From positions 64,001 through 128,000 of IMG/VR virus record IMGVR_UViG_3300046318_000439: a stretch of 64,000 nucleotides of DNA, one strand, 5' to 3'. This document shows positions 16,401 to 50,159 of this stretch, one piece after another. This DNA is from a virus (taxonomy: Duplodnaviria; Caudoviricetes). Both the position numbers and the translations under genes were made by a program. Position 1 is the stretch's first letter. Each line of letters opens with the position of its first letter. Under the pieces are notes generated by a model that was not told where the DNA came from, ran no database searches, and saw only the letters and a program-made list of their open reading frames with translations.

Positions 16401-16952
16401 ATGACAGTTCATTTTGTATATATGTGGTTTGATCGTGTGCGCAAAATGTTTTACGTCGGTCAACATACTGGATCTCTGAATGATCAATACACTTCTTCTT
16501 CACGTTGGCTAGCTGGAGAGATACGTTATCGTCCAGCCGACTTTAAACGTCGCATCATTCGTACATTCAGGACTAAGCATGAAGCTCAGCTATATGAAGG
16601 CAGACTACTAACGCTCATCCGATCCAACGAGTTTGGCTCGAGGTATTATAACCTGAAGATGGGTGCACCTAAAGGCAACTTGCCTTGGAATGCTGGTAAA
16701 ACTAATGTATATTCGAAAGATACGTTAGATAAAATGTCGACCGCCAAAAAAGGACGGCCTTCTCACAATAAAGGTAAACTGAGCCCACTATCAGCCCAAA
16801 ACGGTAAAAAGGGAGCTTCAAAGCTCGCCAAAACTGTAACAGGGAGAAGAATGGCTACTAGGCTAGATGGTACACGGTACTGGATATATCCAGATGTAGA
16901 TTGTTTGGGTGATAAGGAACAATCTACAAATCCTCATTCGATCACTGCTTAA
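16401..16952 (+). mobile_element. Free-standing Seg-like GIY-YIG homing endonuclease gene inserted antisense in tmRNA
   Basis: FVYMW...KMFYVGQHTG...QYTSSS catalytic module, FKRRII, YYNLK, NUMOD-like PWNAGKT/MSTAKKGRPSHNKGK tail. Confidence 0.82.
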
Positions 16953-17091
16953 GCAGCGAGAGCGAAGCGGCTATCATTAGCTGCAATTACATTTATTTGC
17001 TTCTTCGGCCGAGTGTCCTCAACCCTATCGTCTTTCACATTGACGTGTTGCCGTCTCTACTATCTCACGCTGTCGAAACTGTTTCAGGCCC
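16893..17091 (-). ncRNA. ssrA: tmRNA coding piece (permuted two-piece tmRNA), tag AANDSRFALAA
   Basis: 5' GGGCCTG pairs with 3' CAGGTCC-ACCA including G3.U70; TTCGAC D-loop motif; CAGCGTG pairs with CATGTTG of acceptor piece; tag codons 16984-16949. Confidence 0.92.
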
Positions 17092-17152
17092 AATAGAAAG
17101 TATACTACAGCTTTCAGTTACGATACCCCGTAGCACCCCTTAATATACTTTC
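17092..17152 (-). ncRNA. tmRNA intervening segment
   Basis: 61 nt between CCA end and mature 5' end, closed by 9-bp inverted repeat GAAAGTATA/TATACTTTC. Confidence 0.8.
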
Positions 17153-17210
17153 TGGTGGACCTGCCCGGTACTGCCCCGGGGTCCAACATGCCTTCGCTTT
17201 GAAGGGATTA
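17153..17210 (-). ncRNA. ssrA: tmRNA acceptor piece
   Basis: ...CATGTTGGAC CCCGG GGCAGTA CCGGG CAGGTCC ACCA; T-arm with non-canonical GGCAGUA loop; 5' boundary approximate. Confidence 0.88.
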
Positions 17211-17321
17211 CAACAATTCTTTTTTACGAGTTACCAAATGGTATATTACCCAAAAATATATATTAACTGTAGTAGCAATGCCCCATATAAAGGTCCAGTG
17301 CCAGTAGTCTATTAGTATCAT
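17208..17321 (-). CDS. Small hydrophobic protein (37 aa)
   Basis: MILIDYWHWTFIWGIATTVNIYFWVIYHLVTRKKELL*; below ORF-track cutoff. Confidence 0.4.
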   Translation of the reverse strand: MILIDYWHWTFIWGIATTVNIYFWVIYHLVTRKKELL

Positions 17322-20361: not shown

Positions 20362-20573
20362 TATACTAACTCCTCTTCTTCACAAGTAGCTACTACCTCT
20401 AAACTATCACCAGCTTGCATGAAACTAGCAAAGTCTCTCATCGCGAACATTAGATTGTTATCATAATCATCAGAACCTTCTAAACCTAAATCATATGAAC
20501 CAATCACACAACCTGTACTACCCTTCATAATCAATTTCATTTTCATTCCCTTTTCTTCACTTGATGTAATCAT
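20361..20573 (-). CDS. Hypothetical protein (true start probably about 20546)
   Basis: Follows early promoter and GAAAAGGGAA RBS. Confidence 0.6.
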   Translation of the reverse strand: MITSSEEKGMKMKLIMKGSTGCVIGSYDLGLEGSDDYDNNLMFAMRDFASFMQAGDSLEVVATCEEEELV

Positions 20574-21079: not shown

Positions 21080-21146
21080 ACCATATTGAAGCACACGGGC
21101 CTCTGATCAGACTTATAACGCCTAAGCCGATGTGCTTCAATATGGT
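21080..21146. repeat. Hairpin 1: 16-bp stem, 35-nt loop, shares the tRNA CCA end
   Basis: CCATATTGAAGCACA (21081) / TGTGCTTCAATATGG (21131). Confidence 0.85.
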
Positions 21147-21219
21147 AACCTGTACGGGATTCGAACCTGTGAATGCCACCGTGAAAGGGTGGTGACTTAA
21201 GCCACTTGTCGAACAGGTT
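21143..21219 (-). tRNA. tRNA-Glu (TTC)
   Basis: Cloverleaf AACCTGT/ACAGGTT, anticodon loop CTTTCAC, GGTTCGAATCC, encoded CCA. Confidence 0.95.
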
Positions 21220-25107: not shown

Positions 25108-25198
25108 CTTTACCCCTTTTGTATTAATATATGACCAGTATCCGTTTTTTTAACAAAAAGGTCAACAGGCCTACAAACACCAGCAAGATCCGGAGGGG

Positions 25199-25271
25199 TT
25201 GACTTAATTACGTTTTTCTGGGAAAATGGTTTTAATGATTCGAACAGCATACTCTGGGGATGGACGTGGAG
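25199..25271 (+). repeat. Left (remnant) copy of promoter plus 35-nt transcript start
   Basis: TTGACT at 25199; 25237-25271 matches 25831-25865 at 29/35 nt, both 38 nt from their -35 box. Confidence 0.8.
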
Positions 25272-25282
25272 ATATGGTTTAT

Positions 25283-25290
25283 TATAAATA
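25283..25290 (+). promoter_or_regulatory. Late promoter TATAAATA of the HNH gene
   Basis: Exact consensus followed by AGGAGG and ATG 25308. Confidence 0.85.
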
Positions 25291-25307
25291 CCACAGGAGG
25301 ATGCAAA

Positions 25308-25796
25308 ATGAATGATAATGAACTGTATGAATTGTTCCATAGTAAGTACCGATATGAAGATGGTCAATTGATATCCAAACTAACTGGACAAGCAATCAAA
25401 AACAAAGCAACACGATATTTAAAATGTGAGCTTAAAATTAATGGTAAGACACACAACTTCAGAGTGCATAGAGTTATATTTCTGATGCATCATGGATATC
25501 TACCAACAATCGTCGATCACATCGACCGCGACATATACAATAACCGGATAGAGAATTTAAGAGCAGCTAGTCACAGTCAGAATAGCCAGAATCGCGGTGC
25601 GCAGTCAAACAACAAACTAGGTGTGAAGGGCGTATGTTTGAACACATCAAATAATGCCAAAAGCAAACCATACGCGGCCTTCATAAAAGCCAACGGCAAA
25701 AGATATCGAATCGGCTCTTTTGAAACCATCGAAGAGGCCTCTCGCGCTTATAACGACCATGCATCGTTGCATTTTGGTGAATTCAAGTCCAGTTGA
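25308..25796 (+). mobile_element. HNH homing endonuclease with AP2 DNA-binding domain
   Basis: VHRVIFLMHHG..P..VDHIDRDIYNNRIENLR, NNKLGVKGV, YAAFIKANGKRYRIGSFETIEEASRAY; opposite orientation to neighbours. Confidence 0.9.
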
Positions 25797-25821
25797 CCTT
25801 TTTGTCCTTTTCCCGGATAAT
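25793..25821 (+). promoter_or_regulatory. Early promoter TTGACC-N17-GATAAT overlapping the HNH stop
   Basis: HNH TGA (25794-25796) is inside the -35 box. Confidence 0.8.
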
Positions 25822-25827
25822 GATTAC

Positions 25828-25915
25828 ATAGATTTGAAGAGCTAACTCTCGGAATGGACGTGGAGGGTGGCCAACGATTCCTGGGTGCGCGAAAATTGGA
25901 GTCGGCTCTCCCACA
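25828..25915 (+). ncRNA. Candidate small structured RNA (alternatively 21-aa ORF 25855-25920)
   Basis: Stems AGAGCTAACTC/GAGTCGGCTCT and GGAAT/ATTCC; bracketed by convergent promoters. Confidence 0.5.
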
Positions 25916-26033
25916 TTAACAGTATCCCGGAAAATGGTCAAGAGGTCAACGGATATGCTTACATCTCAGTCAAGTATTATTCAGCTGTTGACATTTTTTT
26001 CATAAACACGGATACTGTATAGAGTGACGTATT

Positions 26034-26231
26034 GTGCGTCTAATATTACATTATATGATTATATCGAGAAAACAAGCAATATTAGAATTAATAGAATATG
26101 ACATTAATGATATTAAATCTCTCAAGAAAAAGGAGATGTTATCATTAATCTCTGACCTATTATCAGACAGGTATTATGAATATACTAATGAAACCCTGTC
26201 CGATGAATATGTGGAGAAGATTATAGGATAA
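26034..26231 (+). CDS. Hypothetical protein
   Basis: ORF downstream of TTGACA-N17-GATACT promoter at 25988-26016. Confidence 0.5.
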   Translation: MRLILHYMIISRKQAILELIEYDINDIKSLKKKEMLSLISDLLSDRYYEYTNETLSDEYVEKIIG

Positions 26232-26547
26232 TCTATATTAACTATTATAATGTATAATAGACGGGATTATATTCTCTATTACCTAGTATAATGTCTAATA
26301 TGATTATACAGGATATACTGTGTATTATCGTGAAATAATCTCCTGGATTATCAAGGGGTTATATTATCTATTATCTCGTTGAATATACAGGGATTTTATA
26401 CGGTAGATTACAGCTGAATATAGCGGTTATACACTGAACGAGGCTGTACTTACGCTGGATCTGGAGAAGGTAAAAGGTCACCGAATCTAGCAGCGATTAA
26501 AGTTGAATTAGGCCTATAGTACCCCACCTTTTTCCGGTATTCCCTGA

Positions 26548-26721
26548 GTATTAGTTTAAGTTCATGCAGTGTATTCTACGACCATATTCTACCTGTTTTA
26601 TCCTTATCCTATTCCGATTGGTATTAGTTTAAGACGGGAGATTGATTTCTTACTATACGGCTTTTATTGTATACTACTGATTACTATATTGAAGGTATTA
26701 GTTTAAGACGGGGTATTGATA
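26548..26721. repeat. Three copies of GTATTAGTTTAAG with 73/74-bp period in non-coding DNA
   Basis: Copies at 26548, 26621, 26695; copies 2 and 3 share 19 nt GGTATTAGTTTAAGACGGG. Confidence 0.8.
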
Positions 26722-26734
26722 TTTGATTAGTCGT

Positions 26735-27103
26735 CTAAAAGCGGACTGTATATTGTATCCTATTAGGGGATACTATTAGATAGTCTGTTATCTTTGCTGC
26801 TAGTAGTGATGAAGCGCATGTTACTATAAAGTCTTGCATTGAGCTATCACGATTCGCATACTTGCTATCCATATACTCTTTTGCTAGGCCTACACCGCAT
26901 CCTGCTAGACTACCTATTACTGGATCTTTTGTTAATAATGTGATTGAGCTTCCTATTGCTGCTCCCATGATAGCATGCTGACCTTTATCTTTACCATGCC
27001 AACTATCATTTGACCTTAATAATTCTCCGTATGATAATGATGGGACTAGCAATAAGGTTAGTAGCCACTTACTCATTATACTGATAATTTCTTTTCTTAT
27101 CAA
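26735..27103 (-). CDS. YfiM/DUF2279-like protein
   Basis: DSWHGKDKGQHAIMG...AKEYMD...S..DF motif after signal-like N-terminus. Confidence 0.65.
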   Translation of the reverse strand: MIRKEIISIMSKWLLTLLLVPSLSYGELLRSNDSWHGKDKGQHAIMGAAIGSSITLLTKDPVIGSLAGCGVGLAKEYMDSKYANRDSSMQDFIVTCASSLLAAKITDYLIVSPNRIQYTVRF

Positions 27104-50082: not shown

Positions 50083-50159
50083 TGGTGGGCCGAGTAGGAC
50101 TTGAACCTACGACCAACGGGTTATGAGCCCGCTGCTCTAACCAACTGAGCTATCGGCCC
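50083..50159 (-). tRNA. tRNA with CAT anticodon (probably Ile2, possibly elongator Met)
   Basis: Cloverleaf GGGCCGA/TCGGCCC, loop CTCATAA, GGTTCAAGTCC, CCA; paired G1-C72 excludes initiator. Confidence 0.93.

Follow-up and report, generated by a model that had tools for sequence, protein, structure and literature searches.

The window, that is, the whole 64,000-nt stretch analysed here, comprises bases 64001–128000 of a 202,272-bp virus record from IMG/VR that carries direct terminal repeats. DNA near-identical to the window is contained in many freshwater metagenome runs, and among the public runs listed as containing the stretch, none is on record as RNA. The genes of the window include those of a gp32-type single-strand DNA-binding protein and an ATP-dependent DNA ligase. 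Two tRNA genes (21143–21219 and 50083–50159) were found with ARAGORN and Rfam, and a permuted (two-piece) tmRNA gene with the tag AANDSRFALAA is located at 16858–17245 of this phage genome. Along the 202-kb genome, the cumulative GC skew changes monotonically and gives no indication of an origin. The segment of about 90 bases that is the subject of this study belongs to a locus at about 89.8 kb of the genome. A tRNA or tRNA-like identity of the segment was rejected, since neither ARAGORN nor Rfam finds a cloverleaf or tRNA there.

Two promoter–motif units, copy A and copy B, are located on the plus strand of the locus, with a homing endonuclease gene between them. The promoter of copy A (TTGACT-N17-GAAAAT, 25199–25227) is followed, with a 12-nt spacing to the UCGA of the motif, by copy A itself (25239–25271), which consists of UUCGAA, a short helix P1 (CAG/CUG), GGGAU, GGAC and GUGGAG. 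The whole module is present in its consensus form, and every invariant column is matched up to the point where the copy breaks off, which is ten bases past UGGAC (after 25271) and within the variable tail. There the HNH cassette begins. This HNH_3 homing-endonuclease cassette (25283–25796, plus strand) comprises a TATAAATA box (25283–25290), an AGGAGG ribosome-binding site (25295–25300) and an ORF (25308–25796), the product of which matches Pfam PF13392 (E = 3.5e-16).

Copy B is preceded by a strong early promoter of the sigma-70 type (TTGACC-N17-GATAAT, 25793–25821, plus strand) with a predicted start at about A25828. The -10 box ends 12 nt before U25834, the position equivalent to UCGA. The conserved module of copy B spans 25833–25860 and is made up of UUUGAA (25833–25838), P1 (GAG/CUC, 25839–25841 with 25848–25850, loop 25842–25847), GGAAU (25851–25855) and GGAC-G (25856–25860), with the extra pairs U25834–A25854 and U25835–A25853. 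It is followed by a tail (25861–25893), which is G-rich and then variable (UGGAGGGUGGCCAACGAUUCC...). A promoter on the minus strand (25949–25921) reads back over copy B. An earlier note on this DNA had called both this promoter and the plus-strand promoter at 25793–25821, and the consensus matches were confirmed in both cases. Farther downstream lies an A+T-rich stretch without a long ORF (26232–26735), the target of the copy B transcript, which features direct repeats and TATAC-type boxes and ends at convergent minus-strand genes. Three copies of GTATTAGTTTAAG(A/T), 74–80 nt apart, and two 32-nt repeats, each with a TATAATG box, were observed at 26538–26736 and 26228–26300.

A 74-nt direct repeat (25198–25271 and 25792–25865, 72% identity) brackets the HNH_3 gene, the stop codon of which falls within the -35 box of the copy B promoter. 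Since both units keep the module and the stop codon lies in that box, the gene sits between two promoter–motif units and not inside a gene that was destroyed and repaired. The apparent repair after endonuclease insertion, from which selection on the segment had been deduced, is therefore not upheld; what stands is that an unrecognised, selected non-coding element is read from the plus-strand promoter and that an endonuclease gene landed at it without destroying it. Contigs from four freshwater metagenome runs yielded only window-identical pieces, with no HNH-less allele and no cover across the join.

Relatives of the segment were sought at 80 distant loci, which were gathered via a neighbouring protein with 35–46% identity. 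Comparison of the region with these loci by blastn revealed a short block around CUGGGGAUGGACGUGGAG, which was always found on the strand opposite to the neighbouring protein gene and directly 3' of strong TTGAC...TATAAT promoters. Pattern scans of IMG/VR yielded at least 50 and then at least 91 stretches, and in the model-based collection the motif family reached at least 126 distinct instances on uncultured-phage contigs from IMG/VR. A covariance model built from distant phages (R1) matches window positions 25820–25893 (copy B) with 56.5 bits and an E value of about 3e-10, a score that places the segment far beyond chance. Copy A (25226–25292) is matched by the same model with 32.8 bits.

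No known RNA family was assigned to the segment in the earlier note, and this agrees with our searches of Rfam 15, which gave no match on the segment at E ≤ 10. Across the whole window only the tmRNA and the tRNAs match Rfam, and 12 homologous loci yielded nothing at E ≤ 1. Neither megablast nor blastn detected a true motif match among the cultured phages of INPHARED. Nothing relevant came up in a literature search on the core sequence and on RNA motifs of phages. In 596 Gb of prokaryote genomes, all but two of the matches listed are chance hits in GC-rich bacterial coding DNA; the two true matches among them (L144 and L162) are both on short MAG contigs. By sequence and fold, the motif is a new family.

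The conserved module has a constant order: UUCGAA, a variable covarying hairpin (P1), GGGGRUGGAC(G) and a short G-rich tail. In the column numbering of alignments A2–A4, it reads U15 U16 C17 G18 A19 A20, P1, G39 G40 G41 R42 U43, G44 G45 A46 C47 and usually G48. P1 is formed by columns 21–23 with 36–38, which are paired in 96–98% of cases. Each of its positions uses C–G, G–C, A–U and U–A, with 50–69 doubly changed cells. None of 500 shuffles was as good, and slid controls gave 25–52%. G–U pairs occur in one of about 170 cells of P1, and the loops vary in both length (3–11 nt) and sequence. Two further pairs enclose the hairpin. The pair 17–41 is C–G in 89 sequences of the final alignment, U–A in two and unpaired in none, and the pair 16–42 is U–G in 48 and U–A in 43, hence 100% pairable. 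Position 42 is always a purine because it pairs with U16. Judged by these pairings, the core is an irregular stem–loop of U16–R42, C17–G41, an invariant GAA/GG purine internal loop and the variable P1, followed by an invariant, predicted single-stranded UGGAC(G). The letters of the internal loop and of UGGAC are 98–100% invariant, whereas the helices only covary. RNAalifold predicted no structure on the raw MAFFT alignment, in which the hairpin is misaligned.

The two U–A pairs at 17–41 belong to window copy B and to locus L313. When compared with 66 other distinct sequences, copy B breaks full invariance in two columns only: U replaces C17 and A replaces G41, each of which is 100% constant in the others. 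This compensated pair is its sole departure from the consensus. A targeted scan for any base other than C17 beside a canonical GGGG core returned nothing, and a scan for any base other than G41 returned one true instance, L313, which has U17 as well. L313 is from an unrelated phage with another type of promoter, another P1 and no HNH gene nearby. The change from C–G to U–A therefore happened twice independently, and no half-changed form was seen. It is possible that the U17–A41 pair protects copy B from the HNH enzyme.

The tail was sampled by fixing only the promoter and the stem–loop, hence without bias. The ten bases that follow the core are represented by 49 different 10-mers in 80 instances and show no covariation. 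GUGGAGG, as found in the window, is merely the commonest subtype of tail. On family average, a single 25-nt block directly after P1 contains 53% G, with a skew of +0.49. Three further structures were considered and rejected. A helix between UUCG and UGGA has no support, its columns being invariant or unpaired. Pairability of a mini-hairpin in the tail (p3–p10/p4–p9) is due to base composition alone (MI = 0.01). As for a G-quadruplex, a few members seem by eye to have no fourth G-tract (e.g. L021 and the second copy in L059).

These results also bear on the fold that had been suggested for the segment, in which long-range stems were assumed. The outer stem AGAGCUAACUC/GAGUCGGCUCU does pair in the window at 10 of 11 positions (25899–25909 with 25838–25848, plus strand), and its duplex z score of -3.75 is the strongest of 124 members. 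However, it has no counterpart in the homologues (mean z = 0.04), and the window-specific complement GAGUCGGCUCU would compete with P1, since the letters assigned to the long-range stem (AGAGCUAACUC) are the P1 hairpin itself. The enclosed GGAAU/AUUCC stem is likewise complementary in the window, but across the family GGGRU against RUUCU scores 6.58, compared to 6.50–6.65 for reversed or shuffled controls. L313, the second phage with U17/A41, has no RUUCU-type partner. The segment folds no better than shuffled sequence (z = -0.40 on the plus strand and -0.01 on the minus strand). Covariation backs a local hairpin built from the same GAGCUAACUCUC letters together with C17–G41 and does not back the long-range stems.

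A promoter with at least 10 of the 12 consensus positions precedes 57 of the 68 motif instances. The distance between the -10 box and UCGA is 7–14 nt in 39 instances, 37–52 nt in 17 and 26 nt in one, and the 12 nt of copy B are inside the 7–14 nt class. This short spacing in 39 instances indicates that the element starts the RNA there. Members of the long-spacing class (37–52 nt) have either another small hairpin, with a GUAGA loop, or a leader rich in purines in between. Members with the hairpin (L135:10440–10475, L100, L126, L111, L092 and L112) feature AUAAUAAGAAAA and then a hairpin with an invariant GUAGA loop between promoter and motif. The stems of this hairpin covary (CGG/CCG, CAG/CUG and CCG/CGG). 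Another subgroup with a long leader carries ACUAAGAGAGCGAA in place of the GUAGA-hairpin element. Between positions 20572 and 26016, the window contains eleven or more promoters of the nearly identical form TTGACC-N17-G(A/T)(T/C)A(A/C)T, most of them followed by GAAGAAAGGGAA and ATG. The two promoters that face each other across copy B are members of this TTGACC-N17-GATAAT family, which clusters at 20.5–26 kb.

We conclude with high confidence that the window phage has in the 90-base segment its working copy of a hitherto undescribed RNA element that is conserved and structured, and that this copy is transcribed by the host sigma-70 RNA polymerase from the promoter at 25793–25821 and so lies at most about 50 nt from the 5' end of its RNA. 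What the earlier note had observed at this place is real, although the structure and function it proposed are mostly wrong.

The window genome carries copies A and B only, and five other large records (163–365 kb) carry one or two copies each, always at a single locus. On contig fragments, the number of copies reaches three or four, arranged as tandems or divergently. Observed layouts include tandem units 125 nt apart, a 22-kb contig with at least three copies and divergent units separated by about 2.5 kb (L114:2288–2482; L372; L127, 121–188 on the minus and 2881–2948 on the plus strand). Of the two copies in a divergent pair, one follows the direction of the genes and the other opposes it; the intervening genes of genomes with divergent copies are all on one strand, a layout on which a lambda-like immunity region was set aside. 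The unit of the window and of its T4-like relatives is oriented opposite to all genes that flank it and reads into a stretch without a long ORF. Elsewhere, some copies head operons of small genes and run with the gene flow.

Among the neighbouring genes, GP88 is the most frequent one for a large protein, and a family of ORFs of about 90 aa is present in more contexts. GP88 (PF17338) was rejected as a partner of the motif; its absence from the window genome points to synteny rather than partnership. Beside the motif promoter at L007:3538–3915 and in 44 related contexts, a divergent gene encodes a conserved protein of 125 aa that matches GIY-YIG weakly (E = 3.9e-5). This gene is followed by an 87-aa ORF and a GP88-family gene, and none of these was found in the window genome.

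Over the 100 nt directly downstream of the motif, the density of DnaA boxes (up to one mismatch allowed) is 7 per kb, which is 15-fold the background of 0.46 per kb. At least two DnaA boxes were found downstream in 29 of 121 instances, compared to one of 121 for the upstream side. In L102 (1850–1960), L099, L126, L097, L021 and L011, 6–12 consensus DnaA boxes (TTATCCACA), with pairs at an 11-nt phase, are located directly 3' of the motif. The remaining instances are followed by AAGCGCCAACUAAC-type repeats or by further promoters. Between 200 and 500 nt downstream, 118 TATACA boxes were seen versus 35 expected (3.3-fold), distributed over 47 of 63 regions. The ORF-poor stretch of the window at 26232–26735 is of a similar character.

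Three roles had been considered for the segment before: a 21-aa peptide (MDVEGG...), a sponge for CsrA/RsmA and a sense/antisense pair from the convergent promoters. The ORF exists, at 25854–25919 and thus one base off the position given previously, and a RUG codon opens the frame in all members of the family. However, GGGG abuts the start codon, so that no spaced and usable Shine-Dalgarno sequence is present. The GAC codon is shared by all 124 distinct sequences, without one change to GAU, codons 3–5 change non-synonymously, the ORF varies in length from 6 to about 100 codons, and the R of RUG is accounted for by the pairing of R42 with U16. When the homologues were compared for covariation and for codon conservation, as had been recommended, the pairing proved to be conserved and the coding did not. 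As for the sponge, the four GGA triplets reported for the segment are indeed there. Across the family, only the GGA within UGGAC is conserved and it lies outside any loop; no terminator or conserved 3' end was found on the plus strand. The antisense promoter is real in the window, but only 3 of 68 homologues have one, which does not make a sense/antisense pair a feature of the family. We regard these roles as highly improbable.

Based on context and on analogy, our leading but tentative interpretation is that the element may be an origin-activating early transcript of the R-loop or primer type at a non-coding locus. It would act in cis at one locus per genome, at which non-coding DNA with DnaA-box arrays or other repeats is followed by A+T-rich TATAC boxes. 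The G-rich RNA behind a 5' hairpin would form a stable RNA–DNA hybrid (R-loop), this hybrid would open the duplex or serve as a primer, and the repeats just downstream would load the helicase. The promoter, the G block, the DnaA and TATACA boxes downstream and the aim of the unit at an ORF-poor stretch are in line with such a role. On the other side, DnaA-box clusters follow only about a quarter of the instances, the G-rich block is just about 25 nt long, and some copies are ordinary operon leaders along the gene flow. T4-type phages are not known to need DnaA, which also counts against an origin. As T5 shows, arrays of DnaA boxes may also lie apart from origins (bioRxiv 10.1101/866236), and this is a further argument against it. 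Furthermore, the R-loop model looks to have no obvious need for an invariant purine internal loop and UGGAC, which more resemble a protein-binding site. A wider form of the proposal, which we consider possible but doubtful, is that highly diverse freshwater phages have a transferable 'origin RNA' module in common. Its hairpin, purine loop and UGGAC would nucleate an R-loop or recruit a replication or transcription factor at a single locus that binds host DnaA or phage initiators. The module would be conserved enough to be the target of a homing endonuclease, with the compensated U–A pair fixed independently in two lineages.

The near-complete invariance of the internal loop and UGGAC, next to helices that merely covary, would also be expected from a decoy or sponge acting in trans, i.e. 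an abundant early RNA whose GAA/GG loop and UGGAC would be bound by a highly conserved protein of the host or the phage, which is thereby titrated or redirected. This picture is consistent with the very strong early promoter, with a gene-like copy number of one or two per genome and with conservation across phages with neighbouring proteins of only 35–46% identity. Nevertheless we consider it rather unlikely, since neither a conserved 3' end nor a terminator was found for the RNA, no candidate partner gene accompanies the motif in every context (GP88 being absent from the window genome) and the link with downstream repeats would be left unexplained. Purine-rich internal loops are classic docking sites for peptides and proteins, and this argues as well for a cis-acting leader that modifies RNA polymerase, similar to HK022 put or to nut. 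The nascent element would then bind the polymerase, directly or via a small protein, and render it resistant to terminators or to roadblocks such as bound DnaA. The motif is always promoter-proximal, is typically present in one or two copies per genome and in some cases heads a gene operon. Such a leader is nonetheless unlikely: the units of the window and its T4-like relatives are short and antisense to their neighbours, with no operon to read through, a single short hairpin stands against the two long stem–loops of put, the P1 loops are not conserved and thus provide no boxB-like loop, and inspection of the sense strand revealed no boxA. Covariation cannot separate RNA from single-stranded DNA, and the near absence of G–U pairs from P1 would suit a displaced non-template DNA strand as the working structure, exposed by transcription as a hairpin for single-strand initiation or primosome assembly or as a protein site. 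Precedents for this exist in the single-strand initiation signals of plasmids and in the hairpin 'A site' with a dnaA box. About half of the sequences have a G–U wobble at U16–R42, a weaker pair in DNA, and the constant distance from the start site speaks for the transcript; a DNA structure of this kind is therefore quite unlikely in our view.

An invariant core that persists despite 35–46% identity of the neighbouring protein, in one or two copies per genome of 160–365 kb and behind a strong host-type promoter, argues that the element must contact something fundamental, be it RNA polymerase, the replication machinery or a universal host protein. To our knowledge, no replication origin and no RNA controlling early transcription has been described for the abundant freshwater T4-like and jumbo phages. 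The motif offers a precise, short (about 45 nt) and testable handle on this, for which a natural compensatory double mutant already exists, and it can be used as a searchable marker of the locus in metagenomes.

Of the known systems, the PeSL elements of T4-type phages are described as composite terminator/promoter elements (PMC2839356, PMC4122927). The early region of the window has a PeSL-like cassette organisation, and its repeated TTGACC-N17-GATAAT cassettes and recombination at them fit shuffling of the PeSL type. Such shuffling is a possible reason for the position of the HNH gene between two promoter units. From PeSL, as so described, the motif differs in being a separate conserved module downstream of the promoter, found once or twice per genome and not in every cassette. 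CsrB and RsmZ sponges are alike in having GGA triplets in a small G-rich RNA. These RNAs, however, present many GGA triplets, mostly in hairpin loops, and end in an intrinsic terminator, whereas the motif has one conserved GGA in a single-stranded tail and no terminator.

With HK022 putL/putR and lambda nutL/nutR, the motif shares the character of a cis element just after a strong early promoter, typically two per genome and conserved as nucleic acid. HK022 put consists of two long stem–loops of about 70 nt, whereas the motif has one short hairpin, often with no operon downstream; a second covarying helix, as in the two-stem architecture of put, is unsupported in the motif family. Lambda nut needs boxA and a conserved GNRA-like boxB loop, whereas the loop of the motif is unconserved.

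ColE1 RNA II, with a downstream dnaA box and pas, and T4 oriF/oriG are origins primed by promoter-proximal transcripts. The motif does not resemble these transcripts in sequence or fold; its conserved part is a 5' irregular hairpin with UGGAC and not a long folded RNA. In common with ColE1 RNA II, T4 oriF/oriG and mitochondrial LSP-CSB II, it has a promoter directly upstream of a G-rich block that is aimed into repeat-bearing or A+T-rich DNA. As in origin-priming transcripts, there is one site or few per genome, and DnaA boxes lie 30–300 nt downstream of the motif in a quarter of cases. If the interpretation as an origin transcript is right, the motif's mode of working would resemble that of these known transcript-primed origins.
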